Origin: an uncultured virus (IMG/VR IMGVR_UViG_3300035208_000846)
Taxonomy: Duplodnaviria; Heunggongvirae; Uroviricota; Caudoviricetes
Length of the DNA: 20,000 nt
Reading direction: 5' to 3' (one strand)
IMG/VR virus record: IMGVR_UViG_3300035208_000846
The notes under the pieces: generated by a model
What the model saw: only the letters and a program-made list of their open reading frames with translations
Told to the model about the DNA's origin: nothing
Database searches by the model: none
Shown here: positions 2,400 through 16,900 of the stretch, one piece after another
Numbering within the stretch: position 1 is the first letter of the stretch
How the letters are laid out: each line of letters opens with the position of its first letter
Program-made: the position numbers and the translations under genes

Positions 2400-2408
2400 T
2401 GTTTCACC

Positions 2409-2819: not shown

Positions 2820-2957
2820 TCACCTCCAAATCAGTTGCATTAGTCCAGCCACCGCATACGCCATCCAGGCGCCGGCGACCATCACGATCCAGTCGAGCTG
2901 GTCGTCATGGTTGGCGGGGAGCCAGCGGTAGCGGCGTAGGAAGTCACGGTTGGTCAT
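2820..2957 (-). CDS. 45-aa membrane peptide
   Basis: MTNRDFLRRYRWLPANHDDQLDWIVMVAGAWMAYAVAGLMQLIWR; fills the gap between its neighbours; hydrophobic C-terminus. Confidence 0.6.
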   Translation of the reverse strand: MTNRDFLRRYRWLPANHDDQLDWIVMVAGAWMAYAVAGLMQLIWR

Positions 2958-3261
2958 CGGTAGGCTCCACGAGGCGGACGATCTCAAGTCCGCCGGCATA
3001 CGAGCTCGCCCTCAGCGCGGCATCCTCGCGTGTGGCGTGAAGCATGTACGGTTTGCCGTCACGTCGGAATGTCGCCCACACCTCGCGTAACTTGCAGACG
3101 ACGCGGTATTCACCAGCGAACACGAAGCGAAGCCACAGATATTCGTCGCTGGCTTTCTGCCGAAATTCGATCTCCGCCTCCCTACCGGCTTCAATCGCCG
3201 TGATCGTCTCGCAGAGAGCGTTGCGGAGTTGTTTCATGGCGGTCAGTTTGTCGTCGTTCAT
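2944..3261 (-). CDS. Hypothetical protein (105 aa)
   Basis: SD GAGGAGG; operon tiling. Confidence 0.75.
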   Translation of the reverse strand: MNDDKLTAMKQLRNALCETITAIEAGREAEIEFRQKASDEYLWLRFVFAGEYRVVCKLREVWATFRRDGKPYMLHATREDAALRASSYAGGLEIVRLVEPTDDQP

Positions 3262-3264
3262 CTG

Positions 3265-3438
3265 TCAGTCCTCCTCGTCGTAAACGGAATCCATGCCGCT
3301 GCCGAACGCCTCGTCGATGCAGGGTTTGCACTCGTCTACGTAGATCGTTGTCACACCTGTTACGCTGTCCGTGCTGACGCGCTTCTGCCGAAGTTCCGTG
3401 TCGCAGTAATGGCAGCGGATGATGATGTCGGGGTTCAT
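3265..3438 (-). CDS. Small CxxC...CxxC zinc-binding protein (57 aa)
   Basis: MNPDIIIRCHYCDTEL...DECKPCIDEAF; SD AAGGAG. Confidence 0.75.
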   Translation of the reverse strand: MNPDIIIRCHYCDTELRQKRVSTDSVTGVTTIYVDECKPCIDEAFGSGMDSVYDEED

Positions 3439-3460
3439 TTCAGACTCTCCTTCAGGCATG

Positions 3461-3514
3461 AAAAAACCCCCGCCGGCCTGCCGTGGAATTGAGACACGGC
3501 GAACCGACGGGGGG
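3461..3514 (-). terminator. Rho-independent terminator-like hairpin downstream of the integrase
   Basis: Minus strand CCCCCGTCGG-ttc-GCCGTG-loop-CACGGC-agg-CCGGCGGGGG followed by T6. Confidence 0.65.
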
Positions 3515-3553
3515 CGGTGCCGCGACGACGAGCCGCGGCGGCCGTACTGCTAT

Positions 3554-4423
3554 TCAGACAACTCGCGGCAGAACGCCGACGAGACTGTGACCGCAGAATC
3601 GCGGGTCGATGTATCGACGTGTCATCGACTCGCGCGTATGGCCGAGAGCCTGTCGTGCCAGGTCGAGCGAACCATTGGCAGCGGCTAGCGTGGCGGTTGT
3701 GCGTCTCAGAGCGTGGAATGCGTGGTAGCGGTCGGTCGGCAATCCGGCGCGTCCGACAATCCGCTTTAACGCCGCAAATAACTGCCGGTGCTGGTACGGC
3801 CAGGGAAATATTGGCTCGCCATTCCAGCCCATTGCGTGGATCGTCTCCAGCGCCTCTTGCGGCAATTGCACGAGTTGGCCGAAGGCGGTCTTGGCATCTG
3901 CACTCACAAGACGCATCCAGCCGGTCGTTCTGTCCAGGTCGGCTTGCTGAACGCTGATGAGTGCCGAGATACGAGCCCCCGACCAATACAGGCAGAGAAT
4001 CACGGCTCGCCACCAGGCGGCCTTGGGAATCGCCGTCCCGCGAATCATCGCACGCTCGAACCGGCAGGAGTCGAGAATCGCGGCCACCTGCTCCAGTGTT
4101 AGAGCGATTGGCGGGTCGTAGGGTATCGCCACTCGCGGCACTTCGGCGTCTCGCGGGTCTTCGCTGGTGAGTTTCCTCCGCCAGGCGAAATGCCAGAGAG
4201 TAAGAATGTCTCCCCGCTCGCGGCGAACCGTCCGCGGGGAGACCTGCCCCAGTCGAGAGGCGAGACAGTTTAGGAAGGTGGTTTCGCTGAAGTCCGCAAC
4301 AGTCGGAGTGCGGCCGAGATGCTTTGCGAAGGCTCGGACAGAGTACCGGAGTTGATCGGCCGAAGAGGCTTTCAGTTGCGGGCGGTAGAGCTTGTAGAGT
4401 GATATAAGCGCATACAAATCCAC
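3554..4423 (-). CDS. int: Tyrosine recombinase / phage integrase
   Basis: Catalytic motifs SGARISA (R), DAKT (K), FHALRRT (HxxR), LGH and TRRY (Y). Likely GTG start at 4423 after GGAGG; the reading frame is open further upstream. Confidence 0.93.
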   Translation of the reverse strand: MDLYALISLYKLYRPQLKASSADQLRYSVRAFAKHLGRTPTVADFSETTFLNCLASRLGQVSPRTVRRERGDILTLWHFAWRRKLTSEDPRDAEVPRVAIPYDPPIALTLEQVAAILDSCRFERAMIRGTAIPKAAWWRAVILCLYWSGARISALISVQQADLDRTTGWMRLVSADAKTAFGQLVQLPQEALETIHAMGWNGEPIFPWPYQHRQLFAALKRIVGRAGLPTDRYHAFHALRRTTATLAAANGSLDLARQALGHTRESMTRRYIDPRFCGHSLVGVLPRVV

Positions 4424-4623
4424 GATGTCCTCCGTGCTGCCGATCTGCCCGCAACGAAAGCCTAGCTTCCATTTTTGGCAGGTCAAATGCGCAGCCGAAC
4501 ATGCACATCGTGGGAATCCATTTCCCGGCACATCCATGCAGCGGCCATCAATGACCACTCCATAACACCGGGAATCTCGACCGGGTTGCACCCGCCGAGT
4601 GCGGCCAGCGAGCCGCGTCAGAA

Positions 4624-4648
4624 GGTGCTTATTTTTGGTATAAGCACC
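4624..4648. promoter_or_regulatory. 9-bp inverted repeat with 7-bp spacer (operator or recombinase core-type site)
   Basis: GGTGCTTAT-ttttggt-ATAAGCACC, directly downstream of the -10 box of the putative int promoter. Confidence 0.55.
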
Positions 4649-4678
4649 ATGTTAGCAAATATCTGCCGATCCTGTCAA
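4649..4678 (-). promoter_or_regulatory. Putative sigma70 promoter for int
   Basis: TTGACA-18 bp-TAACAT with an extended -10 TG. Confidence 0.6.
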
Positions 4679-4724
4679 GCAGATTTCAGGGAACCAGAGA
4701 AAGTTTCCCTAAGTGCAGACTGCA

Positions 4725-4934
4725 CTAAGACTTGCGTCCGATCCACTTTGGGTTTCCCATCGGTGGAGGCGTGAATTTGCGAACGTCCTCGTCGCGGATC
4801 AGCCAGGATTTGCCGATTCGGATAGCCGGCAGCATCCCCATTCTGATGTAGCGACAGACGTTTCCGTGGCTACGGCCGATGATTTCGGCTGCTTGCGTGA
4901 CGGTGTGGTATCCTTCGAGAGCCATGATGCACAT
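4725..4934 (-). CDS. Excisionase-like (HTH_17/MerR-like) DNA-binding protein
   Basis: YHTVTQAAEIIGRSHGNVCRYIRMGMLPAIRIGKSWLIRDEDV is a typical Xis-type winged HTH; it lies between the tRNA fragment and int. Start is 4934 or 4925. Confidence 0.88.
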   Translation of the reverse strand: MCIMALEGYHTVTQAAEIIGRSHGNVCRYIRMGMLPAIRIGKSWLIRDEDVRKFTPPPMGNPKWIGRKS

Positions 4935-4968
4935 GACTATATTGTAGCAGTCATTCGTCAAGATACAA
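4933..4968 (-). promoter_or_regulatory. Putative promoter for a leaderless HTH transcript, overlapped by an ATGACT-N10-AGTCAT inverted repeat
   Basis: TTGTAT-16 bp-TACAAT (extended TG) 6 nt before ATG 4934; no SD; inverted repeat at 4933-4954. Confidence 0.45.
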
Positions 4969-5038
4969 TAGTTTGTGGCTGGCTGTACCATGGGATAAGC
5001 GCCCATCCGGTCCTTACGGATGCCGGCAACCAGCCAAA

Positions 5039-5090
5039 TGCGGGAAGGGGGATTTGAACCCCCACCTTCGAGCGAAGACTAGGCCCTCAA
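5039..5090 (-). mobile_element. 3' half of tRNA-Leu(GAG), putative attP identity block
   Basis: TTGAGGG (anticodon loop) CCTAG, long variable arm CTTC-gctc-GAAG, T arm GGGGG-TTCAAAT-CCCCC, acceptor 3' strand TTCCCGC-A. No D arm or 5' strand upstream; next to xis/int. Confidence 0.85.
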
Positions 5091-5214
5091 CGAACCGTGC
5101 TTTTCGGCGTGTTTAGGAGCGAAACATAGCGCGGTTTTCGAGAAGAACGCCAGGACTTGAACGATCGGCCGATTTTCATAGACTGACGGGTGAGCCTGTT
5201 TCCCATCTTGGTCC

Positions 5215-5247
5215 CCGGGGGCGCGGTCGAACAGGCCGCGCCCCCGG
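5215..5247 (+). other. 14-bp GC-rich hairpin (terminator or mRNA-stabilising stem)
   Basis: CCGGGGGCGCGGTC-gaaca-GGCCGCGCCCCCGG then TCCTTTT. Confidence 0.55.
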
Positions 5248-5265
5248 TCCTTTTGGAGCCGAGTC

Positions 5266-5403
5266 ATGCCGAAAGAAATCAAAGGTCGAAAACTCACGGC
5301 CAAGGACCACCGCCAATGGCGCAAGGTGAACGAGTCCGCCGGGCCAGCCGCTGCGACCGCCGCCGTGAAGAAGTCCATCGCCAAACGATCGAGGAAAAAG
5401 TGA
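5266..5403 (+). CDS. 45-aa basic peptide
   Basis: MPKEIKGRKLTAKDHRQWRKVNESAGPAAATAAVKKSIAKRSRKK; SD GGAG. Confidence 0.65.
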   Translation: MPKEIKGRKLTAKDHRQWRKVNESAGPAAATAAVKKSIAKRSRKK

Positions 5404-5408
5404 TCCAT

Positions 5409-5669
5409 ATGCACTGCACACGATGCGACGGTACTGGATTCCTGAACGCCGATCAACTCCCGGAGGGATTGCTCGACGCAGTCGGCTACGACGGAGTCCT
5501 CGACTGGATTGACCGCCAACCTGCCGGCGAGACAGACGCGGCTGTCTGCGACTGCTGCGGAGACGGTGAGGGCTGGTATGGCACCCCAGGCGAGCACTAT
5601 GGGCCGGACGATCCACCTGGAGACCGTGGGCCTTATGCGAATAACGGCGGCTTGTGCAAGTGCCATTGA
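5409..5669 (+). CDS. Zinc-finger protein with DnaJ-like CxxCxGxG motifs
   Basis: MHCTRCDGTGF...VCDCCGDGEG...CKCH. Confidence 0.75.
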   Translation: MHCTRCDGTGFLNADQLPEGLLDAVGYDGVLDWIDRQPAGETDAAVCDCCGDGEGWYGTPGEHYGPDDPPGDRGPYANNGGLCKCH

Positions 5670-5689
5670 GACAAGAAGGAAGAAGTAAC

Positions 5690-5893
5690 ATGATCCCCGA
5701 CGACGTTCTCACCCTCCTCTCGACGACCAGCGACCCGAAGATCATCAAGATTTGGTTCCCGACGCTGATCCGCGAAATCCGGGAACTCCAAAAGCGCGTC
5801 AACCCGCCGGTCGTGTACGTTGACGCTTCCCTCCCATCGGAGTCAGAACCATGCAAGACGACCGACAAACCCCCGGCTGGATCGTCGTCCTGA
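5690..5893 (+). CDS. Hypothetical protein (67 aa)
   Basis: ATG 5690 after AAGGAAG. Confidence 0.6.
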   Translation: MIPDDVLTLLSTTSDPKIIKIWFPTLIREIRELQKRVNPPVVYVDASLPSESEPCKTTDKPPAGSSS

Positions 5894-6003
5894 TCTTCTT
5901 TGCCATCCTGATCGGGATCGCGAAGTTCGCCGACCTGACCGGATGCCACTCGGCCAACAACGGCCTCTGGGAAGAGGATGTCAGCTCCCAGTACGGGATA
6001 TGA
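5851..6003 (+). CDS. 50-aa membrane protein, possible lipoprotein
   Basis: MQDDRQTPGWIVVLIFFAILIGIAKFADLTGCHSANNG...; TM helix then LTGC; SD GGAG; ATGA overlap with the next gene. Confidence 0.6.
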   Translation: MQDDRQTPGWIVVLIFFAILIGIAKFADLTGCHSANNGLWEEDVSSQYGI

Positions 6004-6107
6004 CTCACACCATGTTTGACGGTAGCGGAATCATCGTCTGGACTATCATTCTGGGCTTTCTGATAATCCTGATCGACGACCTCACTGACAGGAAGCCGCC
6101 ATGCTGA
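6000..6107 (+). CDS. 35-aa single-TM peptide
   Basis: MTHTMFDGSGIIVWTIILGFLIILIDDLTDRKPPC. Confidence 0.55.
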   Translation: MTHTMFDGSGIIVWTIILGFLIILIDDLTDRKPPC

Positions 6108-6292
6108 CCCGCCGCTCGTTCATCGCCACAATCGCCGGCCTCCCAATCCTCGGCAGGATATTCCGCAAGGAACCCGAGAAGCTGCCCTGGAAGGCGTGGG
6201 TAGTCAAGACAAAGAGGATACGTCTGTCGGACCTGCCAAAACTCTACCATCTCGAAGGGCAATCAGGCTGGAAACGAACAGGTAGGCCGTGA
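6101..6292 (+). CDS. Small protein with a twin-arginine-like N-terminus
   Basis: MLTRRSFIATIAGLPILG matches the Tat consensus S/T-R-R-x-F-L/I. Confidence 0.7.
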   Translation: MLTRRSFIATIAGLPILGRIFRKEPEKLPWKAWVVKTKRIRLSDLPKLYHLEGQSGWKRTGRP

Positions 6293-6522
6293 TGGGACAC
6301 TGTAAAAACTGCCGCCACTGGACAGGCAACGAATGGCCTCGCTGCACATGCGACAAGTTCGTCTGGGATGACGGCGAAGTTGATGTCCCACAAGACGGCG
6401 TTTTGATCGCGCGGGCAGTCGCCGACCAGCCATACATCCTCACCGCCCCAGGGTTCGGTTGTTTCCACTTCTCATCCCGTCGGAAATACATCGAAGAACT
6501 CAACACCGGCACCGGCAACTAG
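6289..6522 (+). CDS. Cys/His metal-binding protein, paralog of 2112-2399
   Basis: CKNCRHW...CTCDKFV...TAPGFGCFHF. Confidence 0.8.
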   Translation: MMGHCKNCRHWTGNEWPRCTCDKFVWDDGEVDVPQDGVLIARAVADQPYILTAPGFGCFHFSSRRKYIEELNTGTGN

Positions 6523-7596
6523 CCGACTCTCTGCCGTGAATCCTATGCCCCCCATAAGTGCGGAAAATACGCAAGTCACAGATACACAACGACTTGCGTA
6601 AATCACGCCTTCTTCCCTACGGTGGGCACTTGGCATTTTCCAACGCCTTTATAAACAAAAGGGGGGTATAACTCGCCCCAGATACCGCCTCAAAGCCCCC
6701 GTTTTCCCTCTCGAAAAGCTACTCCCCCCAGTAACCAATAACCACCGAGAGTCAGAAAGAAAGAGAGTCGAGAAGGAAGAAACTCACCAGACACAACACA
6801 GTGACATAAAAGGTACATAAACCGAACGACAAATGACGGGATTTGTGTACCTTCATGCCAAACGACACCCACTCCAAACACCAAAAAACATGGGTAGGGA
6901 ACCTAGAAGAAGAAACCCATCGAACCCCTCGGGGGCGGGGCGTCAATGGTGGGTTCTGGCATGGTCGGGTTCCAGTCGCCGGGTTCTGGTAGTGTACCTA
7001 AGAACAATTCTCATAACGACTTACGTCGATTCCCCTGTTTGTGTTCACCCCGACCTTCATTCCCTTCCGCTCACCTGTTCCTCTCTGTTTTCCCCTGATT
7101 TCCCGCTGATTCTGCGGTTCTTCCTCCGTCTTTCCTTCCTGTTGATCCTCTCTTCTGTTCTCCCTCTGGTGGTTACAGGGGGTATCTGGTGGTCGGGAGC
7201 GATTGTTGAGCGGCGCCGGGCTGTTCCTGCGATCTTCCATGCTGCCGATCTCACTGGTGGGCGACCTGCCTGTCGAGCGCCGGCTTTCGTTGCAGTCGGC
7301 GGCGGGTGGCGACCCGGCTCTTGTTGGGCGTCGTCTCTTGTCTCTTCTTCTCTGACTGATTGACGGCAGGTGGGATGGCTTTTCGAGTAGACGAAGGGCA
7401 GGTCGAGATTGGCTTGCGGTTCCGACTCCGTTCTTTCTCCCGGCTCCCCCTCCGGCGGGATTGTCTCGGCAATCGCCGTAACTTGGTTAATGGTGCCGAG
7501 TTATGAATCGAGTCTCATTCGCCCAATTGTCCAGCCCGGATAATTCTCGGTTTCCCCCTGTTTTTTGCGGGATCTAGGCCCAATCGAGAACCGATG
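6523..7596. other. ~1.1 kb non-coding region with a strand-composition flip (candidate genome terminus, packaging region or origin)
   Basis: A/C-rich over 6640-6930, T/G- and pyrimidine-rich over 6930-7450; only low-complexity ORFs; three 29-bp related palindromes at 6570, 6997 and 7477. Confidence 0.55.
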
Positions 7597-7625
7597 TTGA
7601 CAAGTATCGGGCGAGATGCTAAAAT
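7597..7625 (+). promoter_or_regulatory. Strong sigma70 promoter heading the early-type gene array
   Basis: TTGACA-17 bp-TAAAAT with an extended -10 TG. Confidence 0.85.
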
Positions 7626-7671
7626 GCTAGTGTTCGAGGGGAAACCAGGCAACCAAGATCAGGAGTGAATC

Positions 7672-7857
7672 ATGCGACCAATCCAAGCGACCGTCCTTTC
7701 GACTGACAATGGAATCCTCGTTCGCGTGCGACGCGGGTATCGTGCCGAATCGCTGTACGGACGGACCATCCCGGAGGGGCTGAAGTATGGAGATCGGGTG
7801 CTTGTCCGTCGCGAACGGAACAATCCGTTCCTCGTTTACGTCGGAAGGCCGGAGTGA
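7672..7857 (+). CDS. Hypothetical protein (61 aa), first gene of the array
   Basis: SD AGGAG; directly after the promoter. Confidence 0.75.
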   Translation: MRPIQATVLSTDNGILVRVRRGYRAESLYGRTIPEGLKYGDRVLVRRERNNPFLVYVGRPE

Positions 7858-7863
7858 ATGCCA

Positions 7864-7911
7864 GGTCGGCCCGGCGGCCCACAACACGCCCCATCCCGGG
7901 AATGATGGGGC
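7864..7911 (+). ncRNA. Two-hairpin kissing-loop element, copy 1
   Basis: GGTCG-gcccgg-CGGCC cacaacac GCCCCATC-ccgggaat-GATGGGGC, then SD AAGGAG. Confidence 0.7.
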
Positions 7912-7931
7912 AACCACGAAGGAGTGGAACC

Positions 7932-8207
7932 GTGATAGCAGAAGACAAAGCCTGGGAGTCCGAAACGCTCGCCTTCGTTATCGACGGTCGGGCGTACACA
8001 ATCGCTGACTTCCGCCGGATAACCGATCGGCTGTTTAATCCGGAGGATTGGAAAGCGCCTTGGGCGGCGCTTGTTCCATACGATCTGGTGGCCGCAGCGA
8101 TTGCCGCAACAGAGTGGTTCCACGCCGATCGGCCGACAATCGTGGGAATCGAGCCGGCGCCGGGAACCGGCCGCGTGATACTTCGCGGCAATGGGTATCA
8201 AGCGTAG
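7932..8207 (+). CDS. Hypothetical phage protein (91 aa)
   Basis: GTG 7932 after AAGGAG; ...EDWKAPW...ATEWFH...GNGYQA. Confidence 0.75.
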
Positions 8208-8218
8208 TTCAACAAGTC

Positions 8219-8250
8219 GGCCCCGCGATTGCCTCAACAATCGCGGGGCC
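8219..8250 (+). other. Perfect 13-bp intergenic hairpin without a U tract
   Basis: GGCCCCGCGATTG-cctcaa-CAATCGCGGGGCC. Confidence 0.7.
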
Positions 8251-8280
8251 AGGTCAACCCTGAAACGGAGGGTAAAACCG

Positions 8281-8928
8281 ATGCAATTGTACGAACAATA
8301 CCGGCCGGCGTCATGGTCGGAAGTAGTCGGCCAGGACAAGACCTTGGCCAAACTCGACTTGCTCCGTCCCCGCGGCCTGGGCGGCCGCGCATATTGGCTT
8401 TCCGGCCAGTCGGGCACCGGAAAAACGACCATTGCCCGGCTCATTGCCGCTGAGCTTGCCGACCCAATCCACATTGAAGAGATCGACGCAACGGACCTGA
8501 CCCCCTCGCGATTGCGTGAACTGGAGCGTGGATTGCAATTGCGGGGGTTTGGCAAAGGTGGCAAGGCGGTCATCGTCAATGAGGCGCACGGGCTGCGCCG
8601 GGATTCAATCCGGCAATTGCTGGTCCTATTGGAGCGATTGCCCGGGCACGTCGCTTTTATTTTCACCACCACTTGCGACGGGCAGGATGATCTGTTCGAG
8701 GAAAAAATCGACGCCCATCCGCTCTTGTCGCGTTGCGTCGATCTTCCCCTATCACGGCGTGACCTGGCGAAAGCCTTTGCGGAACGTGCCCAGTCCATCG
8801 CTCGACAAGAGGGGATGGACGGCAGGCCGCTGGAAGCGTATGTCAAGCTCGCCGAAAAACACCGTAACAACCTCCGGGCAATGCTCCAAGACATTGAATC
8901 CGGCGCGATGAGGGGGACGGAATCATGA
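8281..8928 (+). CDS. Clamp-loader-clade (DnaX/RFC-like) AAA+ protein, short form (215 aa)
   Basis: [17 protein letters not shown]-terminal motif, Walker A GQSGTGKT, Walker B variant VIVNEAH, FIFTTT sensor 1, LLSRC arginine finger, NLR sensor 2. Confidence 0.9.
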
Positions 8929-9245
8929 TGAGCAAGCAAGAGGAAATCGACCTGATCCGCGCCTTTGTGGCGGATTCCGTCCCCCGCAATAGCTATCTTG
9001 CAACGCTGCTTGCGGAAATACCGGCAGAGTGCGAAAAGCTAATCCGCTCTGACCTGGCATGGCCGCTATCCGTTGCTGCGAATCATGAAGCACGGCTGGC
9101 GGCCGACGCTGAGCTTGAATCGGTACAGAAAAAGACTCGGGAAGCGAGCCGGGAGCTTGCCAAGCTGCAAGTCGCAATTGACCGAGCATCGTCAACCCTA
9201 AAGGAACTGCGGGATAGCGCCCGCAAGATCGCTGCAACCACCTGA
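8925..9245 (+). CDS. Coiled-coil hypothetical protein
   Basis: ATGA overlap; helical C-terminus. Confidence 0.75.
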
Positions 9246-9257
9246 AAGGAAAAAACC

Positions 9258-9443
9258 ATGATGATCGTTGAATGGTCACCCGAAATGGGCGTGTTCGTTG
9301 TCGATTACAAAGGCCGGCAAACGATCGTTTCGCCGGATGAGCTACACGGAAAATATGCCGGATGCCGCCAGATATTCGAGCAAGCCCGCCAAGCGGTCGA
9401 ATCCGGTAGGGCAGTATTGGGAGTTCACGCAGACCTAGAATAA
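9258..9443 (+). CDS. Hypothetical protein (61 aa)
   Basis: SD AAAGGA. Confidence 0.7.
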   Translation: MMIVEWSPEMGVFVVDYKGRQTIVSPDELHGKYAGCRQIFEQARQAVESGRAVLGVHADLE

Positions 9444-9455
9444 GGAGCAAACAGC

Positions 9456-9656
9456 ATGAAAACGGAATCAAAACAACCCCGATTGCCTCGCGCCATTCTG
9501 GAAGGCATTGAATACCTTACCGCACAGGCCTATGCGGAGGTGTTCAACCTGCTCGATTGGCAAGCCACGATCTCGGGCGACGAAGCAGGCCGAATCGCCA
9601 CGCTCTGCGAAGATGTCGTCCGCAAGGAGCTTACAAAACTTTGGGAGTGCGACTGA
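9456..9656 (+). CDS. Hypothetical protein (66 aa)
   Basis: SD AAGGAG. Confidence 0.7.
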   Translation: MKTESKQPRLPRAILEGIEYLTAQAYAEVFNLLDWQATISGDEAGRIATLCEDVVRKELTKLWECD

Positions 9657-9877
9657 TGAAAGTTACCGTCAATTTCCACGAGTGCTCGTTTCGATTCACT
9701 GAGAAACCGCCCGCCGAGGTATTGCAGGCCCTCAAGGCACACGGCTTCCGTTGGCAGCCGATCTCCCAATGCTGGATGCGGCCCAAAGGTTGGCGCGGTC
9801 TGCCGAACAACTTTGGGGATTGGCTCGTCGCGAAAGCCGAGGGTAAAGAAGTCCCGCTAATCAATCGCTGGCCGTGA
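9656..9877 (+). CDS. Small protein with F..KP....LK..GFRW.P....W motif
   Basis: MKVTVNFHECSFRFTEKPPAEVLQALKAHGFRWQPISQCWMRP; TGATG coupling; the motif recalls a small domain of plasmid/phage leading-region proteins. Confidence 0.75.
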   Translation: MKVTVNFHECSFRFTEKPPAEVLQALKAHGFRWQPISQCWMRPKGWRGLPNNFGDWLVAKAEGKEVPLINRWP

Positions 9878-10124
9878 CCGCTCCCCGAGAACTAACCCTG
9901 AACCGCAAAGGACAATGAATCATGTACATCTACCGCGCCATTCAACGCGATACCAGATGGATACCGCCTCGCGAAACGGAACACGAATTCCCGACTGAAG
10001 AGGAAACCGTCAAGTGGTTGCAGGAACACGGCGGGGGCATTTACCGAAACATCCTACACAGCTTTGACTGCGAGATAAAGCCGCAACCGTCATGACCGCT
10101 CCCCGAGGAACAGCCCCGAACCGC
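9875..10124 (+). repeat. 32-bp imperfect direct repeats (9875-9906, 10093-10124) flanking one small gene
   Basis: TGACCGCTCCCCGAGaactaaCCCtGAACCGC versus TGACCGCTCCCCGAGgaacagCCCcGAACCGC; 27/32 identical. Confidence 0.85.
9922..10095 (+). CDS. 57-aa hypothetical protein
   Basis: MYIYRAIQRDTRWIPPRETEHEFPTEEETVKWLQEHGGGIYRNILHSFDCEIKPQPS; SD AAAGGA. Confidence 0.7.
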   Translation: MYIYRAIQRDTRWIPPRETEHEFPTEEETVKWLQEHGGGIYRNILHSFDCEIKPQPS

Positions 10125-10207
10125 GCACCCGGGTTTCGCCACCGGGCGGGGCTCTTGCCGGACCTGCTGTAGGGCCGGCGTCAGCGACACCGGAAGGAGT
10201 GAAAACC

Positions 10208-10543
10208 ATGAAAGCCATCAAGACAACAATCCTCGCGCCCACCGATCGACTCGGAACCCGAATCAAGGCAACCGATGAGGACGGCAACGCCGTAATCCTG
10301 CCTTACCGCCACGAATTGCGCGACGACGAGAACCACGCCCGGGCGGCAACGGCACTCTGCGAAAAGATCGGGTGGGATGGGGAACTATGTGGCGGTTCGC
10401 TCAAGCATGGCATGGTCTGGGTGTTTATCAGCCCTAGCACGCCCTGCATTAGCGTTGAAGTTCAATCAGACCGAAAGGCAACCCATGAAACTCTACGAAA
10501 TCGCTCGACAAGCGTTGGCTACGGCCGACGCTCGGCTCGCTGA
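10208..10543 (+). CDS. Conserved-type phage early hypothetical protein
   Basis: MKAIKTTILAPTDRLGTRIKA...ENHARAATALCEKIGWDGELCGG...VWVF; SD AAGGAG. Confidence 0.8.
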   Translation: MKAIKTTILAPTDRLGTRIKATDEDGNAVILPYRHELRDDENHARAATALCEKIGWDGELCGGSLKHGMVWVFISPSTPCISVEVQSDRKATHETLRNRSTSVGYGRRSAR

Positions 10544-10661
10544 ATCGCTGCTCTGCTATCTGGAGCGCAAGCACGGCCTGAACTACGTGGGGGCGATGGA
10601 ATATTTCGCCGCCCACGACATCGACCCGCGGGAATATGAAGACCTAGTGGAGGAGGCTTGA
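10485..10661 (+). CDS. Hypothetical protein (58 aa)
   Basis: MKLYEIARQALA...; SD GAAAGG. Confidence 0.65.
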   Translation: MKLYEIARQALATADARLAESLLCYLERKHGLNYVGAMEYFAAHDIDPREYEDLVEEA

Positions 10662-10664
10662 ATC

Positions 10665-10913
10665 GTGAAACTACATCTCGCAGTGGGCGACTTCGCTCGA
10701 AACATCGAAACTGGCTGGCTCGGCAAGATCGTTGAAATTCTGCCGCCGCAAAAAGTCTGGATCAACAGGCACGAATATTTCATCGAAGTCATGGCCAACA
10801 TGCTCGGCGTTGACACGCTGGCTGTGGCCGCCTCTGGGCTATCGTGGGAAGAAGCGCTAAGCGATAACGATACCCAACAGCATTCCCTGACCGATCTGAT
10901 GCTCGCCCGCTGA
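10665..10913 (+). CDS. Hypothetical protein (82 aa)
   Basis: GTG after GGAGG. Confidence 0.7.
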   Translation: MKLHLAVGDFARNIETGWLGKIVEILPPQKVWINRHEYFIEVMANMLGVDTLAVAASGLSWEEALSDNDTQQHSLTDLMLAR

Positions 10914-11026
10914 CCTGGCGCGCGCCTGACCGCCGTGGCGACACGGCGGAATGGCCTGGGCCAGGTGGCACAGGTGGACCCGGACGCACCGGGAGCAACA
11001 AATGCCTATTGGCAGGAGTTGAGAGA

Positions 11027-11332
11027 ATGGCACGTTACGAAATGTCGGACGGTATGATCGTGGACACCGCGAACGCCTCGCAGACGTGGCTTGAGGAAAC
11101 CGATTGGGATGGAAACAACCATATCAGCCGCGCAACCGGTTCGCAGTGGGACCACCAGCGGCTCTACCGCAGCCGGCGTGGCCGGTATTACATTGTGTCG
11201 TTTTCCCAATGGCAGGGGTCGATGCCAAGCGCCGAGTGGATCAGCAACGAGGAGGCGGCGCGCTGGCTCCTCAAAATGGGGCACGACCTGCCCGACGACC
11301 TAAAAGAGGTTGCTGACGACCTGCTCGACTAG
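11027..11332 (+). CDS. Hypothetical phage protein (101 aa)
   Basis: MARYEMSDG...HQRLYRSRRGRYYI...ISNEEAARWL; SD AGGAG. Confidence 0.8.
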   Translation: MARYEMSDGMIVDTANASQTWLEETDWDGNNHISRATGSQWDHQRLYRSRRGRYYIVSFSQWQGSMPSAEWISNEEAARWLLKMGHDLPDDLKEVADDLLD

Positions 11333-11341
11333 ACCGCGCCA

Positions 11342-11389
11342 ATCCGACCCGGCGGATCACGCGATCCCGCCCCGGGAATCGGCGGGGTC
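11342..11389 (+). ncRNA. Two-hairpin kissing-loop element, copy 2
   Basis: ATCCG-acccgg-CGGAT cacgc GATCCCGCC-ccgggaatc-GGCGGGGTC, then AGAAGGAG. Confidence 0.7.
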
Positions 11390-11405
11390 AGAAGGAGTGA
11401 GAACG

Positions 11406-11639
11406 ATGAAAATGCGACGGGATACCTGGACCACATACCGGGTGAGCGGATACACGCATGCGCTGACGCAAGATCAGGCGAGCGCCGGCGGGGTAATCCT
11501 CCACCAAGTGCGTAGGACAAAGCGCGGCTGGCAGAAACGCGCCGTCCAATCTAATGGCAACCACAGCTCGGCCACCGATCCAAGCGACGTGGCGGACGCC
11601 GAGGGTGAGGCCGCATGGGAGGCGGCTAAGAAATACTAA
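11406..11639 (+). CDS. Hypothetical protein (77 aa)
   Basis: ATG 11406 after AAGGAG. Confidence 0.75.
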   Translation: MKMRRDTWTTYRVSGYTHALTQDQASAGGVILHQVRRTKRGWQKRAVQSNGNHSSATDPSDVADAEGEAAWEAAKKY

Positions 11640-11667
11640 CTGACACCAGATCACGGGAGACAATACG

Positions 11668-12033
11668 ATGACCACCGAAAAAGTGTACGCCAGCGTCGCT
11701 GAGGCGCGCAATGCTTTGTGCCTCGACACTGGGTTCGACCCGTTCCTCACCGGCCACGTCAAGGGACGATGCACGAAGAAGGCCCTGGCGGACCTGGGCT
11801 ATATCGTAGACGCCAAGATTGCGGCCGAACGTGCGAAGGAGCACCGCTGCGCAGTCTGCCAGGTGACACTCGATCTTGAGTACGACGGTGCGAGATGGGA
11901 GTATCCAAGGCACTGTAGAGATCACCGGAAGTACTGCTACCAATGCGACAACGGCCACAAGTGGTACGCGACCGAGGCCGAAGACAAAGCCGCCGGGCAT
12001 CGCTGCCCCGAGTGCGGCGAATATTGGCAGTGA
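11668..12033 (+). CDS. Multi-zinc-finger protein
   Basis: CAVC...HCRDH, CDNGH...CPECG motifs; SD GGGAG. Confidence 0.8.
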   Translation: MTTEKVYASVAEARNALCLDTGFDPFLTGHVKGRCTKKALADLGYIVDAKIAAERAKEHRCAVCQVTLDLEYDGARWEYPRHCRDHRKYCYQCDNGHKWYATEAEDKAAGHRCPECGEYWQ

Positions 12034-12045
12034 CCTACCACCCCC

Positions 12046-12089
12046 GCGGACCCGGCCGCACAATTGACCCCGCTCCGGGATTGGCGGGG
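12046..12089 (+). ncRNA. Two-hairpin kissing-loop element, copy 3
   Basis: GCGG-acccgg-CCGC acaattga CCCCGCT-ccgggatt-GGCGGGG, then ATGGAGG. Confidence 0.7.
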
Positions 12090-12101
12090 ATGGAGGACGA
12101 C

Positions 12102-12335
12102 ATGCTGACCCATCCTGAGCAGGCCGACAACGAGGTATTCGTCGGCAATCATCACGGCACTGAGATACCCCACGAGTTAGCGCACATCCCGTCAGTGCGA
12201 CTAGGCAGCGTCGCCTACGACATCGACGGCAAGCGGCTGCCAGAGGCGTATCGGCCGCTGCTGGTTGGCCGCGGTGCCGACCACGACAGGTACGACAGGA
12301 TTAGAGAGGCTGCGTTCCAGGCGATCCGGGGCTAA
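12102..12335 (+). CDS. Hypothetical protein (77 aa)
   Basis: MLTHPEQADNEVFVGN...RLGSVAYDIDG...YRPL; SD GGAGG. Confidence 0.78.
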   Translation: MLTHPEQADNEVFVGNHHGTEIPHELAHIPSVRLGSVAYDIDGKRLPEAYRPLLVGRGADHDRYDRIREAAFQAIRG

Positions 12336-12355
12336 GGCCTGGCTGACATCACCAT

Positions 12356-12400
12356 GCCGCCCCGGCGGCTCAGCACAACCCCGCTCCGGGATCGGCGGGG
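12356..12400 (+). ncRNA. Two-hairpin kissing-loop element, copy 4
   Basis: GCCG-ccccgg-CGGC tcagcacaa CCCCGCT-ccgggatc-GGCGGGG, then AGAAGGAG. Confidence 0.7.
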
Positions 12401-12415
12401 AGAAGGAGAGCGACA

Positions 12416-12550
12416 ATGAACGTATACGATGTCTTCCGGTGTGGGGTGTACGTGCGGCAAATCGTTGCATGGAACATCAAAGATGCTCAACAGTGGATTG
12501 CGGCCTATATGCCGAGTTGCACAGTGCGTTTCGCTTATACGTTGCGATAA
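12416..12550 (+). CDS. 44-aa hypothetical protein
   Basis: MNVYDVFRCGVYVRQIVAWNIKDAQQWIAAYMPSCTVRFAYTLR; SD AAGGAG. Confidence 0.65.
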   Translation: MNVYDVFRCGVYVRQIVAWNIKDAQQWIAAYMPSCTVRFAYTLR

Positions 12551-12575
12551 GCCATCATTAACGAAAGGAAACCGA

Positions 12576-12839
12576 ATGAGAGTTCCAACACTTGACGAAC
12601 TGCTCGCCTATCGCGGCGAGGAAGGGATACTCCGCATTCCATCGGCTGGAGCGGGTTCGCAAAAACAACCTCCACTCTACGCGCGAGTGCGGGTGGTTGA
12701 CGCCCGCTATGCCGCCCAGCGTATCCACCTGCTCGTCACACCGCTCGGCGGCAGCGGCGAACAGTGGGTTTGGCTTTCCCGAGTACAATTGGATAAGGAG
12801 AGACTGAATGAAGCGGCCCGCCAAGTACACAACAGATGA
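12576..12839 (+). CDS. Hypothetical phage protein (87 aa)
   Basis: VRVVDARY...LLVTPLGGSGEQWV; SD AAAGGA. Confidence 0.75.
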   Translation: MRVPTLDELLAYRGEEGILRIPSAGAGSQKQPPLYARVRVVDARYAAQRIHLLVTPLGGSGEQWVWLSRVQLDKERLNEAARQVHNR

Positions 12840-12900
12840 TTACGTGACGCTGGCGGTCACGCTGGCTGTAATCATGGCCCTGATCGCACTGGGAGGATGA
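12808..12900 (+). CDS. 30-aa single-TM peptide
   Basis: MKRPAKYTTDDYVTLAVTLAVIMALIALGG; SD AAGGAG. Confidence 0.55.
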   Translation: MKRPAKYTTDDYVTLAVTLAVIMALIALGG

Positions 12901-12901
12901 C

Positions 12902-13936
12902 ATGGCCGAACAGGCAACGACCTGGGGCTACGCTCGCCGGAGCACCAAGTATGAGACCCAGGAAGAGTGTTTACCGAAACAGGCCGAGCAAATCGGCGAG
13001 AAGTTCACCGATCTTGTCGCCAAGTATGGGGCTGCGAAAGGCGAGATCATCGGCGAGACGAAATCCGGATACAAAGTCCCATTCAACAAACGGCCGGGAT
13101 TTGTCAAATTGCTCAGCATGATGAAGAAAGGCGACTGGCTCGTCGTGACTGACGCCAACCGCCTTGACCGCGGTGCCTTCGCGCTCCATGCGTGCTGTCA
13201 AAAGCTCTACGATATGGGGATCAACCTCTGCATTCTCCGGGCCTCTGGGCTCGGCGACAATGTGGAGTTGAAGGGAACGCAATTCCTGATCTACCTAGCC
13301 GGCGTGTCAATCGCCAATGCTCTGCATAAGGATAGCGTCGTGTCTGGCGTCTTGGCCAAGCACGCCCACTTGCGGAAAAACCATCTGCCCTGGAAAGCGT
13401 ACCCTGACTGGGGACTCAAGTGGGCGACCGATCCGAAAACCAAGACGAAATCAGGCAGCCCAAAATTAATCTGGGTTCCTGACTTCGACGCCCGGGCAAC
13501 CATCGAGCAGATCGTTCGCTGGCACGCGATGGAAGGGAAAACGTTCTGGTGGATTGCCAACGAGATTCACCAGCGCAACTTGAGGGAGCCTGAGAATCCG
13601 CGCTGGTCACTGGCGGGGTATGCCAAATGGAGGCACGATAACAGCCGCCGCCGGAAATGGGCACCGCTCGAACTCAGTTCTAGTGTGTCCTCGCCAAAGG
13701 CACGATTGCGATGTAGGACGCGGAACGTTATCGACGCTTTCTGGTGGTTCGTCGAACAGGTGAACGCCGGCGTCTGGTGGGACCAGCGGATCGAGGACAT
13801 TCGCGACGACCAGATACTCAAGGTCGTCTCGTGGATCATCGAGAATGTCAGCTTGGAAGAGAAGGACCGGCGGCGACACAAATTCATCGCGAAGAAAAAC
13901 AAACAGCCGCCTATTTGGCCTGACCACGCTGCCTAG
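12902..13936 (+). CDS. Serine recombinase (resolvase catalytic domain plus extended C-terminus)
   Basis: WGYARRST (catalytic Ser), Q, ETKSG...KRPGF..LL, GDWLVVTDANRLDR; SD GGAGG. Confidence 0.9.
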   Translation: MAEQATTWGYARRSTKYETQEECLPKQAEQIGEKFTDLVAKYGAAKGEIIGETKSGYKVPFNKRPGFVKLLSMMKKGDWLVVTDANRLDRGAFALHACCQKLYDMGINLCILRASGLGDNVELKGTQFLIYLAGVSIANALHKDSVVSGVLAKHAHLRKNHLPWKAYPDWGLKWATDPKTKTKSGSPKLIWVPDFDARATIEQIVRWHAMEGKTFWWIANEIHQRNLREPENPRWSLAGYAKWRHDNSRRRKWAPLELSSSVSSPKARLRCRTRNVIDAFWWFVEQVNAGVWWDQRIEDIRDDQILKVVSWIIENVSLEEKDRRRHKFIAKKNKQPPIWPDHAA

Positions 13937-16900
13937 CCTGATAGAACGCCTTCTTCAACCGTTCGAGTTGTCGGAGGCGTTCTATTTCTTTTTCCGCCGT
14001 CTCTTTCCGGCGGCCTTCCAGTTCATCCGGTGCGTACAGGATATCCATCGAGCGGATGCCAGGGGTCGATTCGGCGATCCTCTTCTGGGCGTTAAGTAAG
14101 TCGAGCATCTTGGAACGCTCGACATCGTAAGTCTTGAATCGCATCCCGGTTGTCTGGCCAAGCGCCTTTTCGAGGAGAGTTTCCTTCTGGCTGCCAACCC
14201 GCCTGATCTCTTGGATGAGTCGGCTGGCCGGGGTCATGCCCGCAACGGTCTGCGCCCACGCCGAACCCAATAGCGGTTCGGCCTCCTTGACCTCGCGGCC
14301 GAAGTACGGATCACGCCCGGTGGCAACCTTGTACGGGGCTGTGATTAGCGGGTGCGCCATCGCCAGGTTCTTTTCCAGAACACGCTGCACTGTCTTGGGA
14401 CCGAAGGCCATCAGTCGGTTCAAGTCTTCGATCGGCAGCCCGGATTGGGTCAGAAACGTCTGGTCGCCAGGCTCCTTCTGCCGCTTGCCGACCACCGCCC
14501 AGTCCGGCATTTCCGGGGACGGCATACTGATCCGCTCCCGAAGGAAGGACGGCTTGTACGCTTCCTCGTCACCGCCTGCAAATAGCCGAAAGGTCTGGGC
14601 TGTTCGGCCACCGGGACGTTCCAAGAGCTTCGACAACTGGAACGGTACGTTGAGGCGTGTAAAGCTCCAGAAGGGGACAACCCGTTTCATCACGTTCTTG
14701 TCGAAAGAACTTATGCGCGAGTAGTCGAATTGAGCCCTTCGCACCATATTTACGATCTCGGCGGGGCGGTAGCCTTTATCCCACAACGCCTTCGCATACC
14801 CTGCACGGTTCACCGCCTCGACCCACTCGAATGTGTGGCGGCCTACTTCGCTCGCCATGCTGAGGGGGGCTTTGCCGCCGGTCACTTCAGAGACACCGGG
14901 CACCCGGAAGGGATGGAGACTTTCCGTTACCGTTCTGAGTTTCGACGGCTGGCCGGCGATCCCCTTGGCTTGCATGGCTTCGGTCGCCCGGCGCGTCCAT
15001 GCCGGTCCTGATAGCAAGTCCAGCACACCACCTAGCAAACCCTTCTCCGGCAACTGTTGGCCGAGACTTTGGCCGACCAATTCCAGAATCCGTGTGTTCT
15101 TCAAGAGTTGGCTGGTTTCGAGGAAGTTCAGGAAGTCGGCATCGAGCGGGGCGGCGGCCGGCTTGGCAATGTATCGGGCAAGCTCGCGGTAGCCTTTCAT
15201 CAGTTCTGGAGCGTTCACCCAACCATCGGACCACGACTGCCAGAATCCGGACATTAAGTTGCGTGCATGGAAAGCTGGGAATGGGGTGGTCAATGCCCAC
15301 TTGTAGTACGTGTTGATCTTATCCCAAGTCTTGAGCAGTTCGTTCTGCGTCTTGGTGCTCGTCATGTCCCGGTAGGCGCGGAGCACCCGGGATGCCTTGG
15401 CCGAAATGCCGAGTTGCTTCGCAGCATCGAGCGGATCGCCAGTCGCCACACCCAATCGCTCCATCAAGTCGGGGTTGTTGCTGACGAACGTTCGCAACCC
15501 TTGCTGGTTGAACTTGTGGCCATACCAGGCCTTCTCTAGGGGGATTTCGTCAGCACCGCCTTGGCCGAGTTGGCTCAGGACATCTTTCTGTCCAAGGAAG
15601 TGGTGAATCTCCCGCATCGTGGCCAGATTGCCGATCGCTGATTCCACATAGTCGGACATATCCATCACGAGATCGTGAGCGAACAGGCCGGTGTCCCGCA
15701 TCTCCTTGGGGGCGCTGTGGAAGTAGTCGCGCAACTGCTTGACCTTCGGATCGTAGGAATGGACGACGCCGTTCTTGTCCGTCTTCTGGTATGGGTTGAA
15801 GAGTTCGGTGCGTGCCTGTGCCGCCTTGGCCTGAAGGTCTTTGAGTTCATCAGCACTCCCTTGGAACGTTGCGGGATCAAGATACTTCTGATCCCATGCG
15901 TTCATCGCCTCTTCCAACTGGTATCCAAGTAACTGCTCCTGGAGATCGCCAAGGCCATTCTTCTGCGGTAGAGCCCAACCCTTGGCTCCTAATGCCGCTT
16001 TCAGGTCGATGGCAAGCTGCTGCTTCTCCTGAGCGTTCAGGTGCTTTGTGCCAGTGAACAGGGGATTGCGGGCGATTCGGTTGATAAGGTCCGTACCGCC
16101 CGGCAGGTTGACCAGCATCTCCTGCCGCTGCTCGGAGAGATCATAATAAGTGCGAGCCTTGCGGCGGGGAAAATGCTTGGCGAGCGCTTCCCGCTTGGCG
16201 AGATCGGGAATGTGCAAGCCGAGAGCGTTCGTCTCTTCCCAGACCTTGTTCTTGAAGTATTGCAGACCGTCAAGATACTCGAAGACCTGTCCGGCCAGTT
16301 CGTCCGACATTTGCGCCGTGCCGGGGAGGTTTCGTTGCTGCACAAACTCATGGAAAGCGCCCTTTAACTGTTGGCCTTGGGGAATTCCGGGCAACTCCTC
16401 CACCGCCTTGCGGAGGAAGTCAGAAGCCGCGTTGGCGTCGCCCGCTCGGCCGGCAACGTTCGCGGCATCGTTCAGTACCTTTTCAAGGTCGATCCGCCGT
16501 GCTTCCAGTACCGGCCACAGGTTCATGAATTCACCGCCCAGCCGTTCCGCCTCGGCAAAGGCCATATCGGCAACCAACGCCGTGTCGCCTGCAACGTTAC
16601 CGCCGGCCGACTTAGCAAACATCGCACGCAGTCCTCGGACAGGCATACTGGTCCACTTTGAGATCGGACCTGTCCCGTAGGCTGTCTTGCGTACCGCCTT
16701 CGCCATCAGTTCATCGAGCATCCGGCCGCCGGGGAGATCGGCCAGCGTCAGGAACGGGTCGTTGCCGCTGAACGGATTGCGAAACCCGAAGGTCGAGCGG
16801 AGCCCCTTTTCCAACTGGTCGGCGAGCACGGCGGGGGATGTTACGCCCTGAAGTCCACCTACTGTTTCTGATACTCCGGCTGACTTTGTCGCTTCCTCTA

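Follow-up and report, generated by a model that had tools for sequence, protein, structure and literature searches.

The window analyzed here, a 20,000-nucleotide (nt) stretch of an uncultured virus assigned to the Caudoviricetes (IMG/VR record IMGVR_UViG_3300035208_000846), is part of a temperate phage of Planctomycetota. It contains a rightward operon of approximately 19 mostly tiny genes (7672-13936), located behind a promoter-like site at 7597-7625, and four spacers of this operon carry a repeated element composed of two hairpins. Every copy is oriented in the same direction as the genes and is placed on the coding strand between a stop codon, found 6-20 nt upstream of the element, and the Shine-Dalgarno (SD) sequence of the next gene. 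It is a real, well-formed RNA element and, in its architecture, an unusual split version of a leader pseudoknot that is widespread among phages.

Copy 1 (7864-7911, plus strand, as all four) comprises hairpin 1 at 7864-7879 (5' arm/loop/3' arm: GGTCG/GCCCGG/CGGCC), a linker at 7880-7887 (CACAACAC), and hairpin 2 at 7888-7911 (GCCCCATC/CCGGGAAT/GATGGGGC, with CCGGGAAT as the loop), and is followed by a GTG start at 7932. In copy 2 (11342-11389), hairpin 1 at 11342-11357 (ATCCG/ACCCGG/CGGAT) contains CCGACCCGGCGGA, the consensus 13-mer of the compact family described below; the linker CACGC (11358-11362) connects it to hairpin 2 at 11363-11389 (GATCCCGCC/CCGGGAATC/GGCGGGGTC, loop CCGGGAATC), and the ATG start is located at 11406. 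Copy 3 (12046-12089) is built of hairpin 1 at 12046-12059 (GCGG/ACCCGG/CCGC), the linker ACAATTGA (12060-12067), and hairpin 2 at 12068-12089 (CCCCGCT/CCGGGATT/GGCGGGG), upstream of an ATG at 12102. Copy 4 (12356-12400), which precedes an ATG at 12416, has the same hairpin 2 arms (12379-12400; CCCCGCT/CCGGGATC/GGCGGGG), joined by the linker TCAGCACAA (12370-12378) to hairpin 1 at 12356-12369 (GCCG/CCCCGG/CGGC). The linkers of copies 1-4 are 8, 5, 8, and 9 nt long, and the two loops measure 6 nt (NCCCGG) and 8-9 nt (CCGGGAWY). Hairpin 2 is followed after 8, 2, 2, and 2 nt by the SD sequences AGGAG, AAGGAG, GGAGG, and AAGGAG, respectively, and CCGGGA lies 30, 28, 21, and 24 nt from the start, within the range found for the compact family. 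An earlier note made from the sequence of this window had described the same coordinates, stems, loops, and linkers, and only its length for loop 2 of copy 2 had to be changed, from 8 to 9 nt.

The pairing of the stems is maintained despite their different sequences. A script-based count of the four copies gave 49 stem cells, comprising 45 Watson-Crick pairs, four G-U pairs, and no mismatch, and among the 14 stem positions six change on both sides, three on one side only, and five are invariant, so that the compensatory stems suggested earlier are borne out. On the opposite strand, A-C mismatches would take the place of the four G-U pairs. Because G-U pairs work only on the gene strand, and because the elements are placed from stop codon to SD sequence on the coding strand, they are, as judged from sequence, structures of the sense mRNA of the rightward operon, in agreement with the single-stranded structure ahead of ribosome-binding sites that the earlier note had proposed.

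The arrangement is also unlikely to have arisen by chance from the composition of the window, where the pattern CCCGG-N12-30-CCGGGA has six matches compared to 0.63 expected, a number reached by none of 200 shuffled sequences. Four of these matches are the elements, and the other two form one palindrome within a coding region (15367-15392). Among the 78 CCSGG sites of the plus strand, the four with the longest flanking stems (7-9 bp) are the four hairpins 2. A covariance model built from the four copies, as the earlier note had advised, retrieved exactly those four, at 62.2-66 bits (64.6, 62.2, 65.1, and 66 bits for copies 1-4, respectively), followed by a fifth match at 8.7 bits; since the model matches its input copies by construction, the gap between the scores is the informative part.

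Pieces of the same phage or of related ones are present on contigs of three other metagenome runs, of which only the covered parts were used. Contigs of two runs match the region of copies 3 and 4 and then continue with unlike sequence on both sides, including a different SD sequence and ATG. Insertions and deletions in the other contigs are confined to the linkers (after 12066, and at 12369, 12373, and 12375). The abrupt change of flanks bears on a reading at the DNA level, in which the repeats would serve as short homology patches or as the border of a mobile cassette, similar to PeSL elements, or as a single-stranded DNA recombination signal, thereby shuffling small genes between phages. 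The flanking genes are ORFans rather than paralogs: 16 of the 19 operon proteins have no tblastn match in more than 100 related loci, and PeSLs are described as conserved stem-loop cassettes flanking ORFans (PMC2839356, PMC4122927). Recombining homology patches would, however, need the opposite of stems that differ yet stay paired, and the G-U pairs point to one folded strand. Moreover, the elements contain no promoter-like site, a defining part of a PeSL, and no element-to-element joint was seen in the aligned contigs of the other runs, which are partial pieces. We consider a DNA-level junction quite improbable as the main function, and it could operate alongside an RNA function instead of taking its place; the single-stranded DNA cassette-junction signal of the earlier note has weak, indirect support from the contigs that match copies 3 and 4 and then diverge.

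The two loop sequences recur in further parts of the operon. When a pseudoknot descriptor was applied to the plus strand of the window, eight sites were found compared to 2.1 ± 1.5 in shuffled sequences (eight was reached in two of 300 shuffles), and six of the eight lie in spacers of the rightward operon. Besides the four copies, CCCGG...CCGGG pairs without flanking hairpins occur in two further operon spacers, at 10128-10146 and 10979-10993. The first belongs to a candidate compact-type variant at 10123-10146 (plus strand; GCG-CA-CCCGG-GTTT-CGC-CA-CCGGG) in a 112-nt spacer before the gene at 10208, and the second to a variant at 10974-10993 (plus strand; GTG-GA-CCCGG-A-CGC-A-CCGGG-A), located 20 nt before the AGGAG of the gene at 11027. 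Both were recognized by pattern only and are weaker than the four copies. The spacer with the 10974 variant differs at five positions from an approximately 97% identical contig of run X6, all of them outside the variant, which is not significant. The long spacers of this operon are generally structured; strong hairpins without a T-run are present at 8221-8253 (13-bp stem, loop CCTCAA) and 10930-10949 (8-bp stem, loop GCGA). A 32-nt direct repeat, 84% identical, extends from the stop codons of two neighboring small genes (9875-9906 and 10093-10124; TGACCGCTCCCCGAG...).

The relationship of the split copies to a smaller motif emerged from a related phage (L054), whose ATPase is 67% identical to that of the window. 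It carries CCG-A/G-CCCGG-CGG-A(A)C-CCGGG-AG twice, directly before an SD sequence and ATG, as well as a degenerate third copy, and the 13-mer CCGACCCGGCGGA is common to this phage and copy 2 of the window. A scan of IMG/VR with CCGACCCGGCGGA-N0-25-CCGGGA returned 71 loci on contigs with a GC content of 0.39-0.70. In approximately 40 of the 71, the two parts are 0-4 nt apart, resulting in a compact form of 19-23 nt; most forms with a gap of 1-4 nt are located in spacers shortly before a start, and the seven 19-nt forms lie in long reading frames. Where the gap is longer, the matches resemble chance occurrences within coding sequence. As far as can be deduced from these alignments, the compact element is an H-type pseudoknot of approximately 20 nt, xxx-A-CCNGG-x'x'x'-A-N-CCN'GG-A, present in many unrelated IMG/VR phages and assigned to the H-type because its two helices interleave. 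Stem 1 has 3 bp, loop 1 is a single A, stem 2 has 5 bp, loop 3 consists of A and one further nucleotide, and an A follows at the 3' end. The hosts of the IMG/VR contigs were assigned from GC content and the style of the start region only.

Both helices vary among these phages. When the scan was repeated with stem 1 left free, 70 matches contained CCG/CGG (21), GCG/CGC (7), and CGG/CCG (5) as stem 1 types, in addition to CCG/CGC in 29, which leaves one pair open and comes mostly from tandem copies in a few contigs; eight other combinations occurred mostly in coding-like contexts. The central pair of stem 2 was C-G in 21, G-C in 13, and A-T in 8 of 51 matches, and non-complementary in nine. Among 43 distinct leaders, chosen by an SD/start filter alone, 98.8% of 344 cells were paired and 24 cells changed on both sides; their covariation score was reached by none of 500 shuffles, and controls in which the partner was slid along the sequence paired in 4-51% of cells. 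An SD-like sequence and a start were found downstream of 42 of 59 distinct hits compared to 16 of 59 when the same filter was applied in the opposite direction. Both helices were complementary in 38 of the 42 hits passing the filter and in six of the remaining 17. The distance from the compact motif to the start ranged from 14 to 45 nt (median 20.5). A variable hairpin 0-4 nt upstream of the motif was present in 25 of 42 cases compared to 16 of 42 in a control window, a modest enrichment.

The genes found behind the compact leaders are unrelated to each other and include those encoding major head (capsid) and scaffold proteins, an endolysin/transglycosylase, and a DNA methylase, together with many unknowns, and some leaders lack any SD sequence. 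These two observations suggest that the partner of the motif is not gene-specific. Nor is the element restricted to this phage or, as in the module envisaged in the earlier note, to early genes: its core recurs widely among unrelated phages, where capsid, scaffold, lysis, and methylase genes also follow it. In one IMG/VR record (G411), six tandem cassettes of approximately 700-770 nt (3364-7031) each consist of a compact pseudoknot, an SD sequence, and a paralogous gene encoding 211-234 amino acids (aa).

Other repeated structures were noted in relatives of the phage. L054 carries a second repeated spacer module (4412-4480 and 4680-4745), which resembles another H-type pseudoknot: its 6-bp hairpin is GCGCCG/CGGCGC in one copy and GCCGCG/CGCGGC in the other, a compensatory difference, and a conserved TCGGGGG located 12 nt further downstream offers a pairing partner for the loop CCCCCGA. 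In another relative (L001), a different pair of hairpins (CCCGC...GCGGG, then GCCGGC-GGCGT-GCCGGC) occurs twice before SD sequences (9344-9396 and 9781-9834). The 38-kb metagenome contig L017 carries a CRISPR-like array (~900-6300) of at least eight repeats of approximately 36 nt, containing GTCGTTCGTTCGTTGATGCCGAAAGGCGTTGAGCAC, with spacers, located 2-7 kb upstream of the ATPase homolog.

Comparison of the two forms suggests that the split copies are expanded members of the compact family. Hairpin 1 corresponds to stem 1 of the pseudoknot, lengthened to 4-5 bp, with the inner pairs TCG/CGG, CCG/CGG, CGG/CCG, and CCG/CGG in copies 1-4, and the same three stem 1 types are found in the window as in IMG/VR; hairpin 1 of copy 3, for instance, reads CGG-A-CCCGG-CCG, a flipped variant that also occurs in IMG/VR. 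Loop 1 provides the 5' strand of stem 2, and the 3' strand with the trailing A is located at the 5' side of loop 2, so that stem 2 (CCCGG...CCGGG-A) is present in all four split copies. The difference lies in loop 3, which, composed of the linker and the 5' arm of hairpin 2, measures 13-17 nt compared to 1-4 nt in the compact form (2 and 1 nt at the 10123 and 10974 sites, respectively), and for this reason the split copies are regarded as a variant architecture. Here, the added hairpin 2, which abuts the SD sequence, holds the 3' strand of stem 2 in its loop, giving an intramolecular kissing complex. The helix between loops 1 and 2, already postulated in the earlier note, is very likely real, being the counterpart of the pseudoknot stem 2 whose central pair covaries in the compact relatives. 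The element is better called a split H-type pseudoknot than a pair of independent, incidentally kissing hairpins.

Endonucleolytic cutting of the C/A-rich linker would give the split architecture a different meaning. The elements would then act as RNA punctuation, hairpin 1 capping the upstream 3' end and hairpin 2 the downstream 5' end, in the manner of RNase III in the T7 early precursor. The copies are indeed intercistronic in a polycistronic phage operon and hold a single-stranded linker between two stable hairpins, and the linkers vary in length and sequence, taking up the insertions and deletions of the other contigs while the hairpins are kept; T7 offers a precedent (PMC3867540). Most compact relatives, by contrast, occupy 5' leaders behind promoter-like sequences, not intercistronic positions, and have no linker. 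Likewise, there is no conserved irregular duplex of approximately 20 bp with an internal loop, of the RNase III type: only in copy 3 is the fold of minimum free energy a long nested one, and copy 1 has just a 5-bp helix. A host range spanning GC contents of 0.39-0.70 further argues against reliance on one host nuclease, and we find punctuation by cleavage unlikely.

Database searches agree with the earlier note, which did not recognize the element as a described family. Rfam 15 gave no match for the window at E ≤ 1, for 11300-12450 at E ≤ 10, or for 20 compact loci, and returned sub-threshold unrelated matches only; a 17-bit local match to Mu-gpT-DE in one locus (L247; gathering score 49) skips the motif and was rejected. 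The full two-loop pattern was found at 12 IMG/VR loci, all without the hairpins, and the hairpin 2 pattern at nine, none of them the element; three loci (L146, L150, and L152) contain an unrelated 13-bp hairpin with the loop CCGGGAAG. The covariance model detected nothing convincing in 81 metagenome and IMG/VR relatives (best match 18.1 bits, E 0.27), nor in 22 genome loci and five whole metagenome-assembled genomes (MAGs). Among 401 Planctomycetota genomes, the hairpin 2 pattern matched two, both unlike the element, compared to six control matches, i.e., at chance level, and a search of five MAGs likewise stayed at chance level. No match to 191-nt queries was found in the INPHARED phages, and a 30-nt query gave 14 partial matches, of which one is intergenic. 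The literature, searched by sequence string and by words, yielded no mention of the motif. A catalog of approximately 10,000 candidate viral RNAs exists (PMC10690425), and the motif is not in the six of its supplement files that were searched; a prior listing elsewhere in this catalog is possible. Overall, the compact pseudoknot appears to be uncatalogued.

The intergenic INPHARED match is a near-copy of the compact motif in Elizabethkingia phage TCUEAP2 (OK632025.1, 39010-39040; L333, 1501-1530), which is followed by a T-run between two hypothetical genes and looks like an intrinsic terminator. It lends some weight to a transcription signal read by RNA polymerase, i.e., tandem terminators or attenuators lacking a U-run, or a put/nut-like antitermination site. 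GC-rich hairpins after stop codons would be in keeping with such a signal, as would the location of copy 1 directly behind the first operon gene, which encodes a small basic protein (61 aa, pI 10.8); nutR/tR1 of lambda occupy the same position, behind the first small basic gene. Yet none of the four copies is followed by a T-run or is included among 16 terminator-like sites, and four to six sites per operon, each 2-8 nt from an SD sequence, are unlike the usage of nut or put sites. A terminator would also leave the conserved loops and the pseudoknot unexplained, and no Rfam match supports an antitermination site. This makes a transcription signal very improbable.

Further explanations were considered and rejected. 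As a trans partner, the c4-2-like match at 4972-5038 has loops (GUAA and CGCUUAUC) that are not complementary to the element, and ATTCCCGG at 4568-4575 on the minus strand lies inside the integrase frame and was counted as chance (CCGGGAWY: 11 occurrences compared to 4.5 expected). A bipartite promoter or dimeric operator is contradicted by the half-site spacing, which varies from 5 to 21 nt, and by the covarying stems. A stop-codon read-through signal is incompatible with the frame after the stop codon of copy 1, which closes after 15 codons.

We favor, with a confidence slightly above even, the interpretation that the split copies are expanded members of the compact pseudoknot family on the sense mRNA, most likely acting in cis on the following cistron. 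The structure, its covariation, its strand, and its position relative to starts are established by the sequence analysis, and each functional step is our inference. A gene-independent role at the start of translation is favored because it is the sense strand that folds, the motif keeps a fixed distance from the start, the genes behind it are unrelated, some leaders are devoid of an SD sequence, and the range of GC content is wide. We hypothesize that a compact, GC-rich, coaxially stacked fold would be positioned where the mRNA leaves the platform of the 30S subunit. It could prevent upstream coding RNA from pairing with the start region, shield the message behind it from 5'-end-dependent decay, and possibly serve the small subunit as a docking or standby site, and in this way each unrelated small gene would gain its own self-contained start.

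Several observations weigh against this interpretation. The five pairs between loops 1 and 2 are invariant across the four copies, and covariation of this helix comes only from the compact relatives, for which the search patterns fixed 15-17 of 20 motif positions; covariation was thus measurable at three pairs, and sequence conservation is partly built in. Homology between the split and compact forms is suggested by shared 12-13-mers, position, and one bridging phage, and no further occurrence of the full split form came up in the IMG/VR sequences or related loci scanned. In copy 2, with its 5-nt linker, a fully stacked kissing complex would, by a geometric estimate, need opened outer stem pairs or a bend. 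Minimum free energies are ordinary for GC-rich sequence (z = -0.41, -0.32, -3.34, and -0.09), being unremarkable in three of four copies, and because the folding energies are not unusual, the case is based on complementarity and covariation, not on stability. The predicted energy of opening the SD sequence and start is 7.3, 3.9, 7.4, and 1.7 kcal/mol for the four genes compared to 2.6-9.4 kcal/mol for other genes; this absence of a trend in SD accessibility leaves the insulating effect unsupported in silico. Finally, only one copy is present in four of five viral records, a number that would also be in line with specific regulation instead of a general role.

One alternative is a regulated switch, in which formation of stem 2 (the kissing helix) would be set by a trans-acting factor, such as a phage or host RNA-binding protein, a small ligand, or an ion, much as a ligand brings the two hairpins of the guanidine-II riboswitch together, and the cistrons bearing the element would be switched together. 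Apart from the single copy in most viral records, unpaired A residues are conserved beyond the needs of pairing (the A that follows stem 1, those on either side of the 3' strand of stem 2, and the A-W-Y of loop 2), and nested folds that use CCCGG:CCGGG (-25.6 to -34.4 kcal/mol) are only a few kcal/mol apart from the two-hairpin folds (-23.9 to -28.8 kcal/mol). There is also a riboswitch precedent (PMC5558903) for an SD-adjacent pair of small hairpins that have conserved loops and are joined by a variable linker. The downstream genes, on the other hand, have no common function, the consensus fold does not sequester the SD sequence, and no candidate binding protein is shared, as, of the proteins of the window, the ATPase alone has relatives in the 100 or more related loci; the model of the first gene product is uninformative (predicted local distance difference test score 52). 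To our knowledge, the 20-nt core is smaller than any known riboswitch aptamer, and altogether a switch appears doubtful, though less so than cleavage, DNA exchange, or transcriptional control.

A broader version of the cis-acting interpretation can be put forward tentatively and is, in our opinion, less probable than that interpretation itself. The 20-nt pseudoknot may represent an undescribed class of phage leader RNA that extends across host phyla and has a universal partner, either the 30S platform (in SD-independent initiation) or a small ligand or ion, and the planctomycete phage would show the same fold built modularly as a kissing complex and reused at several junctions. The small size, conservation, and wide spread of the motif point to a partner that many bacteria have in common, for example the ribosome, a decay enzyme, or a ligand.

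In keeping with a temperate phage, the minus strand encodes a tyrosine integrase (3554-4591), an excisionase-like helix-turn-helix protein (4725-4925), and a ParB-like protein, and carries a stretch resembling a tRNA 3' end (~5039-5108). This stretch contains a T-arm (17.7 bits) and adjoins a weak match to c4-2 antisense RNA (29.6 bits, gathering score 41) beside the excisionase and integrase genes; ARAGORN calls no tRNA. The entire region (4972-5108, minus strand) is probably an attP site with a tRNA 3' end and possibly encodes an immunity RNA. Between it and the operon promoter lie approximately 2.5 kb without a convincing gene (5100-7600), in which the plus strand is strongly pyrimidine-rich at ~7000-7360. 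The putative sigma-70-type promoter at the head of the operon (7597-7625, plus strand; TTGACA, 17 nt, TG-TAAAAT) agrees with the consensus at 11 of 12 positions and is the top scorer within 4000-14000; its use as a promoter is predicted from this consensus match only.

The operon itself encodes a clamp-loader-like ATPase (8281-8928) and a serine recombinase (12902-13936), and no paralogous pairs were found among its proteins. The ATPase, its sole conserved protein, has plentiful relatives in metagenomes (321 found, 80 kept); one of them, L016, matches the window at 100% identity and does not count as independent. Its genome-borne relatives lie in MAGs of Pirellulales, Planctomycetaceae, Gemmataceae, and Phycisphaerae, which indicates a planctomycete host. 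A search of IMG/VR revealed no relatives of the recombinase, and no transposase family turned up among the open reading frames of the window that were scanned. Downstream, a 1211-aa protein encoded on the minus strand (13911-17546) has no match in Pfam or PHROG; its language-model features resemble those of LPD38-type large polyvalent proteins (scores 0.92-0.94), and we rejected its identification as an RNA polymerase in favor of this type. A run of 100 N (17550-17649) between two identical 127-nt copies (17423-17549 and 17650-17776) appears to mark the place where a circular assembly had its overlapping ends joined by N, and not a biological repeat. In the leftmost 3 kb, 21-nt-periodic direct repeat families (941-1038, 2009-2103, and 2679-2755; CAGCCGCTCGATCTC...) probably encode the repeats of coiled-coil proteins on one or the other strand.

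Cis-acting leader pseudoknots are a known kind of RNA element, yet the one described here has no Rfam 15 family and is present in dozens of unrelated uncultured phages with GC contents from 39% to 70%. The compact leader motif therefore offers a tractable handle on how phages secure gene expression, and the operon studied provides a natural experiment, in which the same tertiary helix occurs as a compact pseudoknot or as kissing hairpins. The core is short enough for direct testing in reporters and could be useful as a portable insulator of translation starts.

Among known systems, the guanidine-II (mini-ykkC) riboswitch is composed of two GC-rich hairpins with conserved loops proposed to kiss, connected by a variable linker and located next to the ribosome-binding site (PMC5558903, PMC7544219), and this two-hairpin, SD-adjacent kissing design is shared by the split copies. 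Its two ACGR tetraloops are identical, whereas the NCCCGG and CCGGGAWY loops of the split copies are complementary to each other; its genes encode guanidine carboxylase or SugE, whereas the split copies precede phage ORFans and have compact relatives that form an H-type pseudoknot without a second hairpin and without an Rfam match. The PeSLs of T4-like phages, described as combining a strong sigma-70 promoter with a working terminator and acting as DNA homology patches (PMC2839356, PMC4122927), are similarly repeated conserved stem-loops that border ORFans on the 5' side in variable regions of these phages, with runs of G and C in their stems. In contrast, none of the seven promoter-like sites at 4000-14000 falls inside a split copy, no T-run is present, and the stems covary instead of being identical. 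T7 early mRNA, with five RNase III signals reported in its polycistronic precursor (PMC3867540), likewise presents several related structured signals at the cistron junctions of one phage precursor, but a long irregular duplex is not conserved in the split copies, and the relatives of the motif reside mostly in 5' leaders.

REP/BIME elements are short, GC-rich intergenic hairpin repeats with many dispersed copies in the host chromosome and an associated Y1 transposase (RAYT). In contrast to them, the split copies all point one way at a fixed distance from starts and are not dispersed in the 401 Planctomycetota genomes searched. They differ from intrinsic terminators in that hairpin 2 is followed by AACCACGA or by AG/AT and the SD sequence, with no T-run, and from nut or put sites in that four to six sites occur in one operon compared to one per early operon, with no Rfam match. 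The T4 gene 32 leader, the Escherichia coli rpsO operator, and compact viral H-type pseudoknots have very short loops with conserved A residues, and those in leaders are located a short distance upstream of the SD sequence. These known pseudoknots are protein-specific operators of single genes or frameshift signals inside coding RNA, whereas the compact leader motif is common to unrelated genes and phages.

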